64,000 nt of DNA, from the NCBI GenBank assembly GCA_028534125.1, contig CM052816.1, forward strand, positions 50,594,001-50,658,000. The letters are read 5' to 3'. The first letter of the stretch is position 1; each line of letters begins with the position of its first letter. Positions 4,388 through 61,839 of this stretch are shown one piece after another. The notes beneath the pieces were generated by a model. The model did not search any database. It saw nothing but the letters and a program-made list of their open reading frames with translations, and was not told where the DNA came from. Made by a program: the position numbers and the translations under genes. The stretch comes from Lama glama (lineage: Eukaryota).

Positions 4388-4435
4388 TTTATTTTTTATT
4401 TTTTTATTTTTTGTGGGGGTGGTAATTGAGTATTT

Positions 4436-4471
<36 letters not shown>

Positions 4472-4548
4472 TGGAGGTACTGGGGATTGAACCCAGGACC
4501 TCATGCATGGTAAGCATACACTCTGCCACTAAGCTATTCCCTCCCCCC
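4388..4548 (-). mobile_element. Vic-1-type camelid tRNA-derived SINE
   Basis: Reverse strand reads GGGGAGGGAATAGCTTAGTGGCAGAGTGTATGCTTACCATGCATGAGGTCCTGGGTTCAATCCCCAGTACCTCCAT (A and B boxes), then (TAAA)n, AATTACCACCCCC and an A-rich tail. Confidence 0.85.
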
Positions 4549-4745
4549 TTGACTGCTTTATTAATGTTGGTCATTATGGTCTAGTGTTCTGCCTCACTAG
4601 AATGTAAACTCCATGAGGGCAGAGGTTCACATCTCTCCCTCAATTATTTAGAGCTCTGCTGGCACACAGTAGGCACTCAATAAATAATGATCATGAGAGA
4701 TTTACAAAATGGAAGTATTTTAATATATTGTGTAATTTACTAAAT

Positions 4746-7050: not shown

Positions 7051-7139
7051 TTTTTTTTTTTCCCATTTTTTTTCTTGATTGAAGTAGAGTTGATTTACAA
7101 TGTTGTATTAGTTTCTGGTGGACAGCATAGTGATTCAGT

Positions 7140-7184
<45 letters not shown>

Positions 7185-7285
7185 TTTTTCTTTTTCCACA
7201 TTCCTTTTCATCACAGGTTACTACAAGCCATTGGATATAGTTCCCTGTGCTATGAGTAGGACCTTGTTGTTTATTTGTTCTGTAC
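7051..7285 (-). mobile_element. L1 3' end (artiodactyl-type) with internal (CA)n expansion
   Basis: Poly-T, 'ttgaagtagagttgatttacaatgttgt..gatatagttccctgtgctat'. Confidence 0.85.
7143..7177. repeat. (AC)17 microsatellite
   Basis: Perfect dinucleotide run inside the L1 3' end. Confidence 0.95.
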
Positions 7286-8609
7286 ATTGGGATGAGCAGA
7301 TACAAAGAGTCTTGATTTAATTTAATATGCTATCTATAAGAGGCTGCATGATGTCATTGAAAGTGGCAAGTATTCCAGGCTCCAGTCTCAGCAGTATTAC
7401 CTGTGAGTTGGGTACTCCTGAACAAATCTTTTAAATTTCCTACACGCCATTTTACTGCTTATCGTAGAAGGCATAACCTACTTCAAAATGTGGTGTGAAA
7501 CATAAATTCTATCAGTAAACCAATTCTTGGGAACCATGTGAATTAGTTATTATTAGTGATGGGCATGCACTGAAGGTTTGGGACCAGGGGCAGGATGTGT
7601 TAGAAGCTGTGCTTTGGGGAATTAGGCTGGCAGTTATGCTTTGAATGCATTGTGAGACAGGCAAATAGGCCACTGGATAATCAATTCATTTGCAATAAAC
7701 ATATTTTCGAATACATAATAATACATGTATAGCCTTTGAAAGTGAAAAATTCCAAGGGGTTTGGAGGGAGAAGCAAAGTAAGCCCCGACCACCCAGCTAT
7801 CTTTCCCTGAGGCAATTGCAATGGCCAGTTTTTATGTTTTCTCCCAGAGATGATCAACTTATTTATAAACACCCATGTATGAGCTATTTAGGTTTTGGAG
7901 CGATCACCAATTCAGTTTAGGAGGAAAACTTCATTTCTGATGTGGTGTGAGCCTGAATTTCATTTCAAACTGACTCGTTGAGGAGGCCAGACTGCAAAAT
8001 GTGTGGAATGTGGAGGAGCCGCCCTGGGAGGTCACCTGGGGGCTGAGGGATTTCCAGGTCACCAGCACGTCTCTTGCTTTCTCCCTGGGGTAGGCTGACC
8101 CAGGATTTGAAAAGTATTAACCTTTTCGCTATTAAGAACACTTCTATGCTTTTGAGTTGCATCTAAAAGTCTGGAAGATGTTGGGTGGTCTCTGGTGATT
8201 CATTTTAGGCCCTTTGGAATTTGAAGATGCAGCTGAGGATGAGAAAGAAAGGAGATGAAAGAGCTCAAAGAGTTATTTTATATTGAGAAATTGTTGTGTA
8301 AAACTCTTCAGTGCCTTTATTAACCTCTGTAACTCAACTCCACTGAATTTGTCTAATCTTTTCTTCCCGTTCGACCTTGTCCAAACTTCAGACTAAGTCT
8401 GGGCAGTTACTTTTAAAGGCCTGAATATATGCCATGGGGAGTCCAGCAACTATGCCTTCACTTGGGCTGGTCCTCTTTCCTAAAATGCCTCTCTCCATTC
8501 TTCTTGATTTAGAAGTCTTCAAAGTGTTCATCAAGTTTGTCTTATTCCATGAAGGTCGAATACCTTAGTAGCTAAGCTAAGCAACATGGTAGGACCTGAC
8601 AGTATATGC

Positions 8610-9869: not shown

Positions 9870-10378
9870 ATCTTCTCCATTTTTTCCTTCCCCAGGGAAC
9901 CCCAATTCTGCTTCATTCATTACCCTTTTATTTTGCAGCCAAATACCTGAGGGGAAAATTGAACTTGAGTGAGCCATAATTCCAATACTTTACCACCTCA
10001 AACACTGGTACATAAGTGAGCATGCAACTCAATTTTAACCAAACACATTTCAGAGGGAATTTGCTGGGGGATTCAGAAAGAAGTTCTTTCTCTTTTATGA
10101 GAGAGTTATGAAAGCTAATTTTTCTCTTCTCTTGGCTGTGGTCATTTGTTGTTGTGGGGCTTGTATCTTCTGAAGCTATTCTGCTCCATCCTGAGGATCA
10201 CATTATGCAGACAGTGGGACAGAGCTGGGAAAACTGTAAGGGAATCCAACCAGAACCACTGGATAATGCCTCCTCCAAAGTTCCCCTTACCTCTGAATTT
10301 CCAGCTATGAAAGCCAACAGTTTCCTTGATGTTTAATCCATTCTGAGCTTTTTATTACTTGTGACTGAGAACATGGTA
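9870..10378 (+). mobile_element. MLT1-type (ERVL-MaLR) solo LTR, old
   Basis: 3' end 'cctctgaatttccagctatgaaagccaacagtttccttgatgtttaatcca..ttattacttgtgactgagaac'. Confidence 0.6.
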
Positions 10379-10450
10379 AATGCTAGAGAAATATTCTGAA
10401 TTTATGTACACAAGTATGTTAATGCAGTTATCATCACCTAAAGTGTGTAT

Positions 10451-10465
10451 AAAGATTTTGGGGTG
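10451..10465 (+). repeat. Left target-site duplication AAAGATTTTGGGGTG
   Basis: Exact 15-bp copy at 13427-13441. Confidence 0.9.
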
Positions 10466-11397
10466 AATTTTCCGGTCAAGATGGCAGAGTGGTAGGACTA
10501 CGAGCTTGCCTCTCCTCGCAACTACAATGAAACCACAACTGAATGCTAAACAACCATTGAAAAAAGACTGGACGCTAGCAAAGAAGATCTTCTGCAACTG
10601 GAAACATAAAGAGGGAACTACAGCAGGTATGGTAGGAGTGGCATGCTCGCAATATAATTGGGCCCCATACCCCTCAGGTGGGTGACTCACAAGCTGAAGA
10701 TTTGTTAAATCACAGAGGCCCTCCCACAGGAGTGAGAGCTCTAAGCCCCATGTTAGGCTCCCCAGCTCAGGTTCCAGCATTGGGAAGAGAAGGAGACCCC
10801 AGGACATCTGGTTTTGAAGGCCAGGGGGGCTTGGCTCTAGGAGCCTCATGGGACTAGGAGAAACAGAGACTCCAGTCACTTAGGAAGTGTACATGGAAAC
10901 TCATGCACACCAGGTCCAAGGGCAGAGGCAGTGATTTCATAGGAACCTGGGCCAGATCTGTCTGCTGGATTTGGAGGGTCTCCTGGGTATGTGGGGGATG
11001 GTTATGGCTCACTCAGGGGACACAGAAGCTGGTGGTATACATTCTGGGAGTGTTAATCTACATGAGCTTTCCTGGAGGCTGACATCTTGACTGGATCATT
11101 AGAACCAAGACCTAGCCCCACCCAACAGCCTGTAGAGAAGCCTCAGGCCAAACAACATACAGGGTGGGAACACAGCCACACCCATCATCCGACTACCTAA
11201 GCCACAAAGGCCTCTAGACACAGCCCTACCCACCAGAGGTCCAGGACCAAGCCTCACCCAGCAGTGGGCAGACACTGGCTCCTCCTGTATAAGCCTCTAG
11301 TCCAGCCTCATCCACCAGGGGCAGATACTAAAAATAAGAAAACAATAATCACAAAGCTTGTGGAAAGAATCCACAAACACATAGGAAGATAGACAAT

Positions 11398-12288
11398 ATG
11401 AGGTGGCAAAGGAAAATCTCCCAGGCCAAGGCACAAGAGAAAAACCCAGAAGAAGAAATAAGTGATGAGGAGATAGGCAATATGTCTGAGAAAGAGTTTA
11501 AAGTAATGATGGCCAGGATGTTCAGAGAACTCAAGAGGAGTATAGATGCACAGAGTGAAGTTTTTAGCAAAGAGTTGGAAAATATAAAGAATGCCCAAAC
11601 AGAGCTAAAGAATAAAATCACTGAGATGAACAATACACTAGAAGGAACCAAGAATAGACTAAATGAGGCAGAAGAATGAATCAGTGAGCTAGAAGACAGA
11701 TTAGTGGAAATCACTACTTCAGAACAGAAAAAAGAAAAAAGAATGAAAAGAAATGAGGCTAGTTTAAGAGAACTTTGGGACAACATGAAGCAGACTAATA
11801 TTTGCATTATAGGGGTCCCAGAAAGAGAAGAGCGAGAAAGGACCTGAGAAAATTTTTGGAGAGATAATCACTGAAAACTCCCCCAACTTGGGAAAGGAAA
11901 CAGTCACCCAAATCCTGGAAGCGCAGAGAGTACCATACAGAATCAACCCAAAGAGGAACACACCAAGGCACATAGTCATCAAATTGACAGTAATTAAGGA
12001 TAAGGAGAAAATATTAAAATTATCAAGAGAAAAGCAACAAATAACATACAAGGGAACTCCCATAAGGTTATCAGATGATTTTTCAGCAGAAACTCTACAG
12101 GCCAGAAGGGAGTGGCATGATATATTTAAAGTGATGAAAGGGGGAACTTACAACCAAGAATACTCTATCCAGCAAGGCTCTCATTCAGACTTTATGGAGA
12201 AATCAAAAGTTTCACAGATAAACAAAAGCTAAAAGATTTCAGCACCACCAAACCAGCTTTACAACAGATGTTAAAGGACCTTCTCTAT
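11398..12288 (+). pseudogene. LINE-1 ORF1p (coiled-coil, RRM, CTD), disrupted
   Basis: MRWQRK..EKEFKVMMARM..RLNEAEE*ISELEDR..RELWDNMKQTNICIIGVPE / ..RINPKRNTPRHIVIK..YKGTPIRLSDDFSAETLQARREWHDIFK / ..LQPRILYPARLSF..KPALQQMLKDLL; premature TGA at 11677-11679 and two frameshifts (~11840, ~12145). Confidence 0.92.
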
Positions 12289-12348
12289 TCATCAAACCAT
12301 AAGAAAAGAGAGCAAAAAGAAAGAAAAAAAAGAGAGAGATCTACAAAC

Positions 12349-12622
12349 GACTGCTTTGGCTGTTCAGGGTCTTTTGTGGTTCCTTACAAATTCTGGAATT
12401 GTTCTAGTTCTGTGAGGAATGTCGTGAGTATTTTGATGGGGGTTGCGTTGGATCTGTGGATTGCTTTGGGTAGTGTGGCCATTTTGATACTGTTGATTCT
12501 TCCAATTCAAGAGCACAAGAAATCTTTCCATTTCTTTGTGTCATTTTGGTTTTCAGAGTATAGGTAACCTCCTTGGTTAAGTTTATTTTTAGGTATTTTG
12601 TTGTTTTTGATGTAATGGAAAT
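12349..12622 (-). pseudogene. Antisense fragment of L1 ORF2 (post-RT region) inside the composite element
   Basis: Minus strand encodes 'KYLKINLTKEV' and frameshifted remnants of the '[34 protein letters not shown]' region. Confidence 0.85.
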
Positions 12623-12686
12623 GTCTCTGCCAGTTATAAAATTCTGGTTTTTGAAGTGAAAAAAAAAAAAGATGAATGAAGGGCCA

Positions 12687-12870
12687 GCAAATGGCAAAAT
12701 ATCCTTCTTTTTTATGGTTGAGTTATATTCCATCACATATATATGCTGCATCTTCATTATCTATTCAACTACTGATGTGCACTTAGGATGCTTCCATATC
12801 TTGGCAATTATAAATAATGTTGCTCTTAATAGCAGAGTGTACATATCTTTTTAAATTAATTCTTATTTTG
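12687..12870 (-). pseudogene. Second antisense L1 fragment (ORF2 C-terminus/3' region) inside the composite element
   Basis: Minus strand 'MEYNSTIKKKDILPFA' resembles the L1 ORF2 C-terminal 'MEYYSAIKKNEILPFA' motif. Confidence 0.8.
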
Positions 12871-12989
12871 TGGTTGGCTTTATTCCTTTGATATCTATGT
12901 AAGTTTAAAAAGCTAAAGCTCTAAACATTCTTAGAAACAATGAACAGTACGTATATGTAAAAATATACGTGCACTAAAAAAAAAAAAGA

Positions 12990-13426
12990 AAAGATCTATC
13001 AAGCCATGAAAGCCATGGAAGAAACTTAAAAGACATATTACTAAATGAAAAAAGCAAGTCTGAAAAGGCTACAAACTATGATTCTAACCAAATGACATTC
13101 TGGAAAAGGCACAGCTACAGAACCAAAAAATAGATCATGGTTGCGAGGGGTTTGGGGAGAGGGAGGGAGGGAGGGATGAATAGATGGAACACAAAGGATT
13201 TCTAGGGCAATTAAATTATTCTGTATGATAGTACAGTGGTGACTACATGTCATTATGCATTTGTCAAAACCCATAGAATATACATCATCAAGAGTGAACC
13301 CTAATGTTGAGGGTAGGGGACTATATATGTGAGGGTGGGGAGGGCTATATTTGAACTCTCTGTATTTTCGGCTCAATTCTGTTGTGAACCTGAAACTGCT
13401 CTAAAAGAATAAAGTCTATTACAAAA
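12990..13426 (+). mobile_element. Old L1MB-type 3'UTR serving as the 3' end of the composite element
   Basis: 'aagccatgaa..catattactaaatgaaaaaagc..tgaaaaggctaca..gacattctggaaaaggc..gagtgaaccctaatgt..gaacctgaaactgctctaaaagaataaagtctatt'. Confidence 0.8.
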
Positions 13427-13441
13427 AAAGATTTTGGGGTG
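13427..13441 (+). repeat. Right target-site duplication AAAGATTTTGGGGTG
   Basis: Exact copy of 10451-10465. Confidence 0.9.
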
Positions 13442-14189
13442 TCTTTGAATGAATCCTTTGGAATTATAATTGAGTTTTTCACCTTTACATTTATTACTAC
13501 TATATATCAATCCTACATTTTTAGGATGATAACAGAATTAAAAGGAGAAAAGAAAAAACAGGGCATTCGTTGTTGACTATGATTATTTCATGAAACATGA
13601 TCTTTATTTTAGTAGTTGGGGTATATTCAAGGCAATGAATCCAACCTATAAATGAAGAAGAATCTTCTAGCCTGGAGGAATCAATATCTAACTGGACCAC
13701 CTGATTTTAAAAATACTGATGAATTCATGTTGGTTGAGGTTTGAAAGCTAATGTTGGTTCCCATCCCTTTTGAATAATGTCAAATATTTTCACAAAGCAA
13801 TGTTTTCCTACCCCATCTGTAATTATGGGAGACTCTAACCATTTGTTGATCAAGAACATCTATAATGTAATTCTTTAAAGCTTTTTAGTAAATTTTCCAT
13901 TTATTTATTATGAGATCAAAAACCTAAAGATAAAAGAAATGGAGTCACATAGCTCCATAAGACATACTACTTCTTCAGTTCAAAGAAATTCTTCTTATAC
14001 ATCTGGATTCAAGAAACTTTGCAATCATTCCAAAGTGTCCAAGAGGTACGTGCCTGGAGGAGGGGTTTCTGTGTGTGGTCAGCATTTTGTACGTGATGAA
14101 ACCTATCTGAGTTTTCACAGTCTTTCCTCCAAAAAATATACGTATTATTGGGAAAAGAGAAATCAGTATACAGTGAAGTGTTAGTAGCA

Positions 14190-14720: not shown

Positions 14721-16980
14721 TATGTACTGTCAAGTACAAAAACAAAAAAACAAAAAAGACCCCCAAAATTATCATTATTTTGTGATTTTCTTATCCCTTC
14801 TTATTGCTTTTCCACACCTGGAAACATTAAATTATAATAATGAGAGATCTCTTGTTATTGTTGTTGCTATTAATCTTATATAAAGAGATAGGATTGACTA
14901 TCCAGTAATTGGGGAAGGAGTAAGAAAAAGGCAAAATGTTCTGGATTTCACTTTAGGGAACTTAACAATCTAATACTGGAATAAGACCTTGGAAGTGACC
15001 TCAACAAAATATCCAAAGGGCTGTGCCACCAAGAAAACCCCTATTTTAAAAAAGGAAACATTCCATTTCCATTTTCTCATTTGTAAGAGGTAGAACAAAG
15101 TTTAAAAGATGACTTTTCATCCCCTCTCAAAAAAGGGAAAATAAATCTTACTAATGTAGCATATGCATTAGACAATTTTGTTCTCTTTCTGCACTTGGAT
15201 GGACAAAGGACATATTTTTATGATGTAGAATCACTTGAAATGGAAAGATTATGGAGAAACTTACATGTAAAACAATTGAAAAAGTAAAAAATAATATGAT
15301 ATCTCCAAAGTCAATTAGAAAAATCCATTAATAAAAATATTCTATCAAAGTGATGAGTTCCAGATTTAATGGATTCCTTGCCACATAGATATTCCAAGTG
15401 CAATGTTAATATGTTTTTCTTTTAAGATGATGTTTCACCCAGGTAGATTTTTCTAGAACTGAGTGCAGTTAAAACAGGTTTCAAATACCAGCCAATTAGG
15501 GATACAGTTTGTTGGATTTTCAACATGTGGAAAGATAGTATGAAATAACAGAAATAGCTCTGATCTAAGATACAGACATTCTAGGTTCTAGTACTTATTG
15601 TCTCTATGAAAATAACTATGTAACACATTATGTTTGGAGATTTCAATTTTAACATTCTTTTCATAATAAAAATTACACTTGAAGTTAAAAAATAAAAAAT
15701 AAAAATTCTAGTTGCTCTTTTATGATGGCATTCTGAATGGGATGTGTACTAACATGCGAAACATAGCTGAATCACATTTGCTCTTTCAGTTTTTGTTTAG
15801 GAACCCATATACCATAAGTTATTTGGAAAACTGGCTTTAAAAGCAACCTAGAGTCCTTTATACTGTTCGGCTCTTGTTACTTAGAGGAAACCCTTGGTGA
15901 ATCCTTTGAATGTGAATTGTAATAATGCTAACTATTATCTAAAATTTATACTAATTCTAATATTTCTTTATGTATATTCAGGGATGGTCTGGATACTTTA
16001 AAAAAGACCCATAACTACTTTGATCTTTAAAATATTTCAATTATGTCTTCAAAAACAAAACAAAAATTAAATTAGTAAACCTTTTCCTTTTCACCATTCT
16101 GGCAGACTAATCATGTGAACTGAAATACGGATAAGGAAGTATATCTGGTTCTAATTTCTGAACTCAACACCAGATGTTGTTTTCAAGGTTTGCCTTTTAA
16201 AAAAAAACAAATTAACTTTCATGAAGCCATCTCAGCCCAAGGAGGGGAAATCACTGCAGACTAGAATTTTGAATTTATATTTTACTATTAAGCCATGCTT
16301 AGGAGGAGTATCTCCAGCGAATCACCCCTAAGGACAAAATAGATCCTTTAGATATAAATATATTATATACGATGCTCATATATTGTCAAATCTTTTTAAC
16401 CTAGAATATGAGAAGTGCAGTTTTTCCCAAATAGAAACACCATGTTCCTTATGAAACCCCTAACACGCTGCAGGAGGAGAGGACCTTGGGAAAGGTTTGC
16501 GTTACACCACAGGAGCCTTGTGAGACAGTCAGTTTTGTGGTCTGTATTTGCTCTACAAGTTTGTGCTGCAGACAAATATGAGTCATGTGTTACGGCTGAG
16601 CATGGGGAAGCTCCAGACATTCATGAAATTAAAATATATTTACCTTTTAAATAATCATTTACAAGTTGTTGCCCAAAGGTCTTTTCAGGCTTTCTGGTTG
16701 GGAGGAAATGTAATTTTTGACAACTTCAAGTAGGCTATTAGCCAAATAGAATAACCAAATGTTGAAATACCTGTAGTTATTTATATAGGTATGCCTGTAG
16801 TTATTTATGTATGTTTCTTTCTTTAAAGTATTATGAATATGTGCATATATCTATTTATGTCAATATGGCATTTAGTGAATTCTATCTTATTTGAATATAA
16901 AAAGGGGAGATAAGAATTGTGAATGGGGTTATATATCAACTAAAATAGCATCTACTAACTTAGTAAGTCAACAAACTGTA

Positions 16981-17631
16981 TTGAACCATATGACCCAGCA
17001 ATCCCATTCATAGGCAGATATCCAGAGGAAACTCTAATTATTCAAAAAGGTACATGCACCTCAATGTTCATAGTAGCACTATTTACAATAGTCAAGACAT
17101 GGAAGCAATCTAAATGTCCATTGACAGATAACTGGATAAAGAAGTTGTGGTATAGATATATACATATACACACACACACCACATACCCAATGGAATACTA
17201 CTTAGCCATAAAAAAGAATGAAATAATGCCATTTGTAGCAACATGGATAGAACTGGAGACCATCACTGTAAATGAAGTAAGCCAGAAAGAGAAAGAAAAA
17301 TACCATATGATATCACTTATATGTGGAATCTAAAAAAAAAAAAAAAGACACAAATGAACTTATTTACAGAACAGAAACAGACTCATAGGCATAGAAAGCA
17401 AACTTATGGTTACTGGGGGAAAGGAGTGGCTAGAGGGATAAATTGAGAGTTTGGGATTTGAGATACTAACTACTATATATAAAATGGATAAATGAAAATG
17501 TTCTACTGTATAGCACAGGGAACTATATTCAATACCTTATAATAGCCTATAATGAAGAAGAATATGAAAAGGAATATATGTATGTGTGTAACTGAATCAC
17601 TATGCTATACACCAGAAATTAACATATCATA
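16981..17631 (+). mobile_element. L1 ORF2 C-terminus + 3'UTR (5'-truncated)
   Basis: ORF 17064-17333 'MFIVALFTIVKTWKQSKCP..MEYYLAIKKNEIMPFVATW..YHMISLICGI' is the L1 ORF2 tail; artiodactyl-type 3'UTR follows. Confidence 0.92.
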
Positions 17632-19381: not shown

Positions 19382-19785
19382 GTCCATTGACAGATGACTG
19401 GATAAAGAAGATGTGCAGTGGAATATTACTCAGCCATAAAAGAATAAAATAATGCCATTTGCAACAACATAGATGGACCTGGAGATTGTCATTCTAAGTG
19501 GAGTAAGTCAGAAAGAGAAAGAAAAATACCATATGATATTGCTTATATGTGGAATCCACAAAAAGGACACAAATGAACTTATCTACAAAACAGAAATAGA
19601 CTCACAGAAATGGAGAATAAACTTATGATTATCAGGGGGTAAAGGGGATAGGAAGGGATAAATTGGGAATTTGAAATTTGTACCCCTTGGGGAGTGATGG
19701 AAATGTTAGCTATCTTGATTGTGGTGTACACAGCTATCAAAATTTATCAAATTGTACATCTGAAATGTGTGTAGTTTACTTATTA
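19382..19785 (+). mobile_element. L1 3' fragment joined at ~19680 to an older L1M-type terminal segment
   Basis: 'gtccattgacagatgactggataaagaagatgtg..ttgcttatatgtggaatc', then 'gtgatggaaatgtt..tatcttgattgtggtg..aaatttatcaaattgtaca'. Confidence 0.8.
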
Positions 19786-20123
19786 ATCTGTGTGAGAATG
19801 TTGGAGGCTCTCACCCGTCCTGAGATTTGCTTTATTTCTTAAGAGGTCCATTTAAAAAATAATTTTAATTTTCTGGTAAACATTTCTTTACACGTATGCC
19901 CTTTCTTTATAATTTCATCCATTAAAATTAAAATGGAAAATTTCCTTCCAGGCCAAGGGGAAGGACATATTTGGGTGTAAGTGGCTGGGCTTCCTGGCAC
20001 ACTCCACATGATTCTGTAAAGGATTAGTGTAAAGAGATGCTGAAAAAATGATTGAAGGTCATATCAATGACTTTGTTAGAGGATAGGCACAGGCGCCTGC
20101 TGGTCCACAACTGTCTTTGTTGG

Positions 20124-20410
20124 TTTTTTAAAAAAATTTTCTTGAAGTATATAGCCAGTTGAAATGTTATGTCAATTTCTGGTATACAGCATAATGTTTC
20201 ATACATATGCATACATATATTCCTTTTCATATTCTTTTCATTATAGATTCCTACAACATATTGAATATAGTTCCCTATGCTGTGCAGTAGAAACTTGTTG
20301 TTTATCTATTTTATGTAAGTAGTTAGTATCTGCAAATCTCGAACTCTCAGTTTATTCCGTCCCACCCCCTACCCACCTCCCCTACCCCTTGGATAACCAT
20401 AAGTTTGTTG
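20124..20410 (-). mobile_element. L1 3' end (artiodactyl-type)
   Basis: 'ttgaagtatatag..ttgaatatagttccctatgctgtgcagtag..tgcaaatctcgaactc..taaccataagtttgtt'. Confidence 0.85.
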
Positions 20411-37027: not shown

Positions 37028-37414
37028 AATCAGGCCTTTTCATCTTAAATTATCAAGTTCTTTCATGGCTGTTACTGGCCTTTTAGGGGAGATCTGATGC
37101 AGCAAAGCCTGAAATTGCTGCTGCAGCTCAGAAGATAGACTGTCTTAACAAAAGGGACTCAAACGCACTGCAGAACAGATTACTTCTGCTCAGGAAATGG
37201 TCCTGGGAAGAACGTGTAGCCATCAAGACCACACTGGAGCCGACGTAGCGCTTCACAAGTTAGGCTGAGCTTATCTACTCCCCAGACAGCTTTCGTGGCT
37301 CTCCAGCTGTTGTCTAGCGTAATAACTCTCAGCAAGCTGTGTTGCTGAAGCTGACTCTGTCCTGGTGGAAGTAAATGAGCCTGATTCATATTTACAATTC
37401 AGATCATTGTTTTT

Positions 37415-37666
37415 CTGTTTTATTTATTTATTTTTTAAATTAAAATGTAGTTGGTTTACAGTGCTGTGTTCATTTCTGGTGTACAAGCACAGTGATTTGG
37501 TCATACGTATACACACACCTATTCCTTCTCATGTTCTTTTTCATTATAGGCCATTACAAGGTATTGAATATAGTTCCCTGTGCTATACAGTAGGACCTTG
37601 CTGTTTATCTATTTTATATATCGTAGTGTGTATCTGAAAACCCTGAACTCCCAATTTATCCCTCCA
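37415..37666 (-). mobile_element. L1 3' end (artiodactyl-type) with degenerate TSD
   Basis: 'tgtagttggtttaca..tattgaatatagttccctgtgctatacagtaggacc..actcccaatttatccct'; flanks CAGATCATTGTTTTT / CAGATTATTTCTTTT (12/15). Confidence 0.88.
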
Positions 37667-48622: not shown

Positions 48623-48999
48623 TGTTATGAGCCAAATTGTATGCCCCCAGCAATTCACGTGTTGAAGCCCTAACCCTCAGTGTGGCTGTATTTGGAGATA
48701 ATACAAGTAATTAAGGTTAAATGAGGTCATAAGGGTGGGGCCCTAATCTAACAGGACTGGGGTCTTTACAGAAAGAGGAAGAGACACCAGGGATGCTAAT
48801 GGACAGAGAAAAGACCACGTGAGGACACAGCAGGAGGATGCCCATCTGTCAGCCAAGGAAAAAGACCTAAGGAGAACTCAATACTGCAGGAACCTTGATC
48901 TTAGACTTCCAGCCCCCAGAACTGTGAGAAAATAAATTTTTCTTGTTTAAGCCACTAAGTCTGTGGTATTTTGCTTAGCAGCCCTAGCAGGCCAATATA
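48623..48999 (+). mobile_element. MLT1A/A0-type MaLR solo LTR, full length
   Basis: TGTTATG start, AATAAA, 'gacttccagcccccagaactgtgaga'; perfect 5-bp TSD TGAAC (48618-48622 / 49000-49004). Confidence 0.92.
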
Positions 49000-52461: not shown

Positions 52462-52809
52462 TGCTGTGGTGTGAAAGTTTGTGTCCTCCCAAACTTTATA
52501 TGTTGAGATCCTAATCCCCCAAAGTGATGGAATAGCATTACCAGATGGGGCCTTTGGGAGGTGCTTGAGTCGAGAGGGTAGAATCCTGACGAATGGGATT
52601 AGTGTCTTACAAAAGAGGCTCCAGAGAATCTCTCCTCCCTTCTGGCATGTGAGAATAAGTCAGCCACTCAGAAGGGGGCCCTCACCTGACCATGCTGGCA
52701 CCTTCATCTCAGACTTCCAGCCTCCACAACTGTAAGAAATAAATTTCTGTTGCTTATAAGCCAACCAGACTGTGGTATTTTGTTGTAGCAACCGAAACGG
52801 ACTAAGACA
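52462..52809 (+). mobile_element. MLT1A/MST-type MaLR solo LTR, full length
   Basis: TG...CA ends ('ggactaagaca'), AATAAA; perfect TSD GTTTA (52457-52461 / 52810-52814). Confidence 0.92.
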
Positions 52810-52962: not shown

Positions 52963-53330
52963 TGTTATGAACTGAATGTTTGTGTCATCCTCAAATTGAT
53001 GTTATCAAACCCTAACCCCCAATGTGACAGTATCAGGAGGAGATGGCTTTGGGAGGTAATTAGGTCATGAGGGCAGAGGCTTTATGGATGGGATTAGTGC
53101 CCTTATCAAAGAGATGCCAGGGAAGTCTCATCTCTCTTTCCACCTCATGGGAAGCTATGAGAAGACAGATAGTCTACAATCTAGAAGACAGTTCTCACCA
53201 GAACCCAACCACGTTGGTACCCTGATCAGTTTCCGGAAATGTGAGAACTAAATTTCTGTTGTTTACAAGCTAAAATCGTATTTATCAGACTTATGATATT
53301 TTTGTTATAGCAGCCCAGAGGACCAAAACA
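52963..53330 (+). mobile_element. MLT1A/MST-type MaLR solo LTR, full length
   Basis: TGTTATGAACTGAATGTTTGTGTC start, CA end; perfect TSD TACAT (52958-52962 / 53331-53335). Confidence 0.92.
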
Positions 53331-61638: not shown

Positions 61639-61839
61639 ACAAGGAACTACCTACTGTATAGCACAGGGAACTATATTCAGTTTTTGTAATAAGCTATAGT
61701 GAAAAAGAACCTGAAAAATATATATAGGCATGTAAATGTATAGCTGAATTGCTTTGCTGTACACCTGAAACTAACATTGTAAATCAACTATACTTCAATA
61801 AAAAATAAAATTGAAAAAAAAAAAAAAGAAAGAAAGTAG
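61639..61839 (+). mobile_element. 5'-truncated L1 3' end with poly-A and TSD
   Basis: 'ctactgtatagcacagggaactatattca..aatcaactatacttcaataaaa' + A tail; AGCACAAAACT at 61628-61638 and 61840-61850. Confidence 0.9.

Follow-up and report, generated by a model that had tools for sequence, protein, structure and literature searches.

A decayed ORF1-only L1 chimera in a camelid genome, probably one copy of a HAL1-type family

A 64-kb stretch of camelid DNA, referred to here as the window, contains an element that is very probably one decayed, full-length copy of a non-autonomous L1 family of the half-L1 (HAL1) type, carrying ORF1 and not ORF2. An earlier note on this DNA had read it as a HAL1-like family copy with a captured older 3' end. 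This reading is supported by the insertion marks around the element and by P0124, a partial second copy of the chimera which crosses three of the same joints. The family is drawn from two copies and a sampling argument; the window itself holds no second copy.

Half-L1 elements are reportedly described by Smit (1999) and by Bao and Jurka (2010, Gene 465:9). As defined in the accessible parts of two papers, HAL1s are non-autonomous L1 derivatives that encode ORF1p only and have several origins (PMC5753468, PMC13756887). Likewise, the available sections of two others name lineage-specific HAL1 families for bats, guinea pig, and marmoset (PMC3342881, PMC3183009).

Insertion marks and architecture

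The element is bracketed by an exact 15-bp target-site duplication (TSD). The same 15-mer stands at 10451-10465 and 13427-13441 on the forward strand, has no third occurrence in the window with up to two mismatches allowed, and is flanked by mismatches at both ends. Between the left copy and the motif CAAGATGGC at 10477 there are 11 nt; this motif lies near the native L1 5' end and is the only one of its type in the window. At the other end, 13 nt separate the AATAAA signal at 13408-13413 from the right copy, which overlaps a run of seven A. Other exact 15-mer repeats occur in the window, namely in L1 copies, in A-rich runs, and as at least two apparently chance pairs (21011/29897 and 53724/60681), so the significance of the TSD rests on its position. 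The probability of such a placement by chance is about 4e-7, and only 1 of 198,805 random pairs of 40-nt segments had at least 15 nt in common. At a pair divergence of 7.5-10%, an exact 15-bp TSD is expected with a probability of 0.2-0.3, which is compatible with the age of the element.

The nick implied on the bottom strand at the TSD is CTTT/AT, one base away from YYYY/RR. L1 endonuclease targets TTTT/AA, or YYYY/RR under a looser definition, and TTTT/AT and TTCT/AT are among the real insertions given in the accessible part of one study (PMC4859970). The TSD and nick site are in register with a full 5' end and with the poly(A) signal, so the block of about 3 kb bears the marks of one L1-type insertion of an RNA that ran from an L1 promoter to a poly(A) signal. 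The earlier note had argued from the shared TSD that the whole block integrated in one TPRT event, and its observations on the TSD and the AATAAA hold. The marks of L1-type insertion, namely TSD, endonuclease site, and poly(A), are seen for the window copy alone.

The 5' half is an L1 head. It begins with 932 nt of L1 5'UTR (10466-11397, forward strand; GC 51%, CpG observed/expected 0.10) that has a near-native start and, judged by eye, is colinear with the pig L1A 5'UTR. ORF1 follows on the same strand (11398-12288, 297 codons). Its pieces match the Pfam families PF17489, PF02994, and PF17490, which are the trimerization, RRM, and C-terminal families of L1 ORF1. The frame had been described as complete in length, and it does cover the full span of the homologues P0013 and P0014, but it is dead and broken in four places: there is a TGA at 11677-11679, the frame changes at 11821-11824 and 12143-12144, and the stop codon is lost, its position (12286-12288) reading TAT. 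Identity to P0013 and P0014, both full-length, falls from 79-85% in the RRM and C-terminal domains to 52-55% in the coiled coil. None of the 120 matches listed, out of 1,497 for ORF1, was conspicuous as a sister ORF1; the best reached 84%, and coiled coils reached about 70% at most over at least 60 residues.

With the stop codon lost, the last ORF1 frame runs on for 93 codons through the adjoining spacer and the first ORF2 fragment (12286-12567). We rejected this read-through as a feature of the family. It passes a 4-nt deletion private to the window copy, the other two frames stop early, and it is probably due to chance.

Downstream of ORF1, the element is a patchwork. The sense L1 breaks off before the start of ORF2, leaving 60 nt of inter-ORF spacer (12289-12348, forward strand) that by eye resembles the late spacer of pig L1A7. 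Inter-ORF spacers are likewise very short in pig L1A1 and L1A2, at 67-68 nt according to the accessible part of the source (PMC6501411). The breakpoint in the element differs by eye from theirs, pointing to independent spacer loss in related L1 heads.

Two antisense pieces of ORF2, each followed by a linker, come next. The first, scrap A (12349-12622, reverse strand, about 90 codons), corresponds approximately to residues 753-860 of human ORF2p. Positions 12402-12545 match residues 795-841 (E 1.5e-13), a weaker match covers residues 753-783, and a deletion lies between the two. Linker 1 (12623-12687) has a run of 12 A at 12659-12670. Scrap B (12688-12856, reverse strand, about 55 codons) is a C-terminal piece, matching residues 1190-1243 of human ORF2p at 12686-12850 (E 6e-10). 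Scrap B is 71% identical to one lineage-type L1 end in the window, whereas two such ends agree with each other at 77/85 aligned bases, so scrap B is either older or from another lineage. Linker 2 (12857-12987) is AT-rich (GC 26%) and closes with a run of 12 A at 12976-12987.

No sense ORF2 frame was detected in the element. The two scraps are the sole ORF2 material, which bears out the earlier account of an element with no sense ORF2 and two antisense ORF2 remnants. As in HAL1s, L1 ORF1p is encoded, though broken in the window copy, and ORF2 coding capacity is absent.

The captured 3' end (12988-13426, forward strand) carries the AATAAA signal and a short A tail. Compared with two lineage-type L1 3'UTRs elsewhere in the window, it scored 59.5 with one, where shuffled sequences reached 58.5 at most, and 43 with the other, where they reached 50.5. 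As it does not align with them above shuffled sequence, it belongs to another class of 3' end, which may be L1MC1-like rather than of the L1MB type named in the earlier note.

Those two 3'UTRs are 5'-truncated L1 ends at 16970-17630 and 19382-19680, 80% identical over 276 nt, and they served as age and class controls. Further L1 3'UTR pieces lie near 1-216, 7051-7287, 20111-20407, 37404-37664, and 61642-61833. A SINE derived from a tRNA lies antisense at 4416-4550 and has a (TTTA)n tail. We assume it to be of the camelid Vic-1 type (4472-4550), which makes it the chief indication within the window that the DNA is camelid. Related repeat pieces that are 70-80% alike, presumably old LTR fragments, occur at 48885-48983, 52472-52793, and 52973-53273. 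Outside the element, none of the 104 stop-free stretches of at least 75 codons matched Pfam, a search that short exons escape, and Rfam gave one weak match, far below threshold.

A second copy and the competing explanations

The joints of the chimera were found a second time. A protein search with scrap A gave one match among five candidates, P0124, a protein of 149 residues with 92% identity over the query. It is encoded on a public contig of 1,027 bp and forms a singleton cluster without a name. P0124 is a frame that reads this chimera in antisense: in a frameshift-aware alignment it follows the window colinearly from 12733 down to 12290. Of the 143 codons aligned in frame, 120 are identical, and there are six indel steps, which fall at about four places. 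It crosses the joints of scrap B with linker 1, linker 1 with scrap A, and scrap A with the spacer, which its residues 129-149 read in antisense. It also includes the internal deletion of scrap A, and it has linker 1 with a shorter A run; the 4-nt deletion in scrap A is private to the window copy. Among the best 150 of 6,840 ORF2-like matches, the 149 representatives other than P0124 all lack the junction words. What P0124 covers is the central 440 nt or so, as protein; linker 2, ORF1, the 3' end, and the flanks lie outside it. As a result, it does not demonstrate a second complete unit or a second TSD.

In P0124, a 149-codon antisense frame stays open over three joints and is stored as a protein in a public collection. 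We treat this as chance and ascertainment; the window copy has two stops as well as frameshifts there.

P0124 is too distant to be the orthologue of the window copy. Over three blocks, 17 of 125 unambiguous codons differ, for which a neutral simulation gives a best-fit DNA divergence of 6-7%; on all 143 codons the estimate is 7-8%. For comparison, the widest orthologous distance among camelids, that of wild camel and alpaca, is 2.5% (4,720/188,847 bp) in Table 3 of a partly accessible source (PMC6726744). The probability of at least 17 differing codons is 0.0004 at this distance and 0.023 at 3.75%. The chimera, in its central 440 nt, thus has more than one non-orthologous copy. The earlier note had envisaged, as a case against a family, that the joints might occur only once; P0124, with three of them at 6-7% divergence, contradicts it.

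The two copies also share a history of decay. Of 46 scrap A columns conserved in at least 70% of 149 ORF2 homologues, 10 show departures common to both copies, three depart in the window copy only, one in P0124 only, and one differently in both. The common decay indicates that scrap A was already a fossil in their common source.

Three other explanations were weighed. The strongest of them, though unlikely, is that the window element is a one-off retrocopy of a chimeric read-through transcript, with P0124 as the donor locus or its orthologue and no family. Just two copies, 6-7% apart, are at hand, and a sister ORF1 was not found among the matches listed. Moreover, 3' transduction and transcription beyond an absent poly(A) signal are ordinary for L1, as described in the accessible part of PMC4859970. 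Against this, sparse sampling, of unmeasured coverage, would be unlikely to catch a single donor locus, so the recovery of P0124 as a singleton on a 1-kb contig points to a repeated sequence. In addition, each copy has private changes, which would favor a family over a donor and its retrocopy.

Very improbably, the chimera was inserted once and copied afterwards by segmental duplication or gene conversion. P0124 lacks flanks, and a duplication dating back some tens of millions of years would leave the copies about equally far apart. However, the inter-copy divergence of 6-7% is about twice the window copy's own decay (4-5% in ORF1), as if both copies date from insertion, and the sampling argument from P0124 applies here too. 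The least credible alternative, that separate insertions or later rearrangements were framed by a chance 15-mer or that an ordinary L1 was inverted by twin priming, draws on the recurrence of exact 15-mers in the window and the differing ages of the parts, but it is opposed by the placement probability given above, by the failure to find inner TSDs longer than 9 nt flanking the antisense scraps, by the same joints in P0124, and, for twin priming, by a 5' piece in sense orientation, with no inverted 5' piece by the TSD, and a 3' end that is of another type than the lineage L1's own.

A HAL1-type family remains the preferred explanation, and its origin can be outlined as follows. A source L1 would have lost ORF2 together with its own 3' end, so that transcription from the L1 promoter continued into downstream DNA, through old L1 debris with the two antisense ORF2 scraps, and ended at a poly(A) signal that an older L1-type 3' end supplied. 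Scrap A may have come from the parent L1 by inversion, or may already have been present in the downstream DNA. The resulting 3-kb RNA would have made its own ORF1p, been reverse-transcribed in trans by the ORF2p of autonomous L1s, and inserted at several sites. Mobilization in trans is suggested by the insertion marks together with the absence of ORF2. The accessible parts of two papers raise the possibility, with reference to HAL1, that L1 RNAs truncated at the 3' end but with ORF1 are retrotransposed (PMC4859970), and name L1 as the likely supplier of HAL1 (PMC4161310).

We also considered whether the antisense scraps might have a role of their own, by pairing with autonomous L1 mRNA. Such pairing could tether the element RNA near nascent ORF2p and thereby get around cis preference, or could form dsRNA that silences the helper. 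Scrap B is predicted to pair with a lineage-type L1 end at -124 kcal/mol, compared with -41.6 +/- 5.1 for shuffled sequences, but identity is only 71% and the longest perfect run is 13 nt. Given that the decay of scrap A is common to both copies and that the pig family HAL1_SSc spread without scraps, we regard this role as distinctly improbable.

Decay, age, and distribution

Among 117 ORF1 homologues (P0007-P0123, with P0004-P0006 left out), 174 columns are conserved in at least 80% of the sequences. The window copy deviates at 19 of them, which fits 4-5% neutral change. This is about half to two thirds of the inter-copy distance, so ORF1 shows little beyond the window copy's own decay. At the same 80% cut, scrap A departs at 9 of 36 columns, an excess over ORF1 (Fisher p=0.03) obtained from two different homologue panels. 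The contrast is suggestive of a source in which ORF1 was either young or maintained and scrap A already fossil; it could also reflect a young head on old debris, with no selection involved. Bao and Jurka (2010) are said to have found ORF1 kept under selection in HAL1 source elements.

The insertion appears to be old. Sampled words of positions 10000-14000 were present at a fraction of 0.59-0.63 in 19 of 24 listed sequencing runs, which carry four organism labels and come from nine studies. A simple model predicts at most 0.40-0.54 for an empty site, so the insertion is most likely present in these 19. Next to none of the words turned up in three small runs of organism E and in one of organism C, which are informative neither way. 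The split between camel and llama is dated to about 16.3 Ma in the accessible part of PMC12337305. As the decay of the window copy exceeds the 1.25% per branch accumulated since then, the insertion probably predates the split, and we estimate its age at some tens of millions of years.

Searches of other sequence collections were largely blank. The junction pattern matched once in metagenome contigs (L001) and five times in viral contigs, in no case with similarity to the element. The search with P0124 returned none of 89 stretches in prokaryote genomes and none of nine in viral contigs. A 24-nt joint word was absent from prokaryote genomes, and scans of plasmids and phages gave no match. ORF1 gave one weak locus among 40 stretches in viral contigs (L007, 5001-5093 of a 166-kb contig; 45%, E 4e-5), which has no DNA similarity to the window and may be due to chance. 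Because these collections hold little mammalian DNA, the blank scans say little.

Relationship to known elements and significance

The element shares the defining features of HAL1s, namely L1 derivation, ORF1 without ORF2, L1-type insertion marks, and repeated independent origin. It differs in its 3' half, where two antisense ORF2 scraps and two linkers lead into an older L1-type end. Its closest counterpart is pig HAL1_SSc (Repbase; L1A6), for which the accessible part of PMC6501411 gives 3,016 bp, a 5'UTR of 944, an ORF1 of 906, and N=1482. The two have a similar length of about 3.0 kb and, as compared by eye, homologous 5'UTRs (944 vs 932 nt) and ORF1s (906 vs 891 nt). In both, the 3' half is foreign and AT-rich and closes with a borrowed L1-type end. 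In contrast, HAL1_SSc by eye keeps the early spacer, is without antisense ORF2 scraps, and has a short lineage-type L1 end. Since the joints differ, the element arose independently. Membership in HAL1_SSc was ruled out, as both the 3' half and the joints depart by eye from the consensus. The ORF1 decay of 4-5% and the 80-85% identity to the best homologues (suid where named) likewise argue against identity with the ancient eutherian HAL1, HAL1b, or HAL1ME.

Among autonomous elements, L1-1_Vpa, L1-2_Vpa, and L1-3_Vpa (Repbase names, PMC6726744 Table_4) are of the same camelid lineage and would be the likely ORF2p donors. They differ in being full-length L1s of at least 5.2-6.2 kb, a comparison based on their listed coordinates only. 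There is also a resemblance to L1 3' transductions and 3'-truncated read-through retrocopies, in which, according to the accessible part of PMC4859970, transcription to a downstream poly(A) signal carries neighboring DNA along. The carrier here is without ORF2, and the chimera occurs at more than one locus. A read-through of this transduction-like kind was probably the birth step of the element.

A camelid HAL1 family was not found in the literature searched, including the accessible portion of a camelid TE survey (PMC8605555). At 29 of 138 alpaca-repeat places in Table_4 of PMC6726744, the part of the table available, the only names are L1-1, L1-2, L1-3, and LTRs. A dromedary table uses the name 'HAL1' 869 times, and the two places examined in its accessible part are ancient HAL1ME (PMC6675863). 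The family may nevertheless already be catalogued in Repbase or Dfam.

As HAL1 is a known class, the mechanism is not new. If the family is uncatalogued, annotation of repeats would report every copy as four or five unrelated pieces and assign them wrong ages. After pig HAL1_SSc, the element would also be a second independent half-L1 to have formed from this cetartiodactyl L1 head. In addition, an ORF1 that lies beside non-coding L1 debris of known ancestry provides a built-in control for asking whether HAL1s need their own ORF1p.
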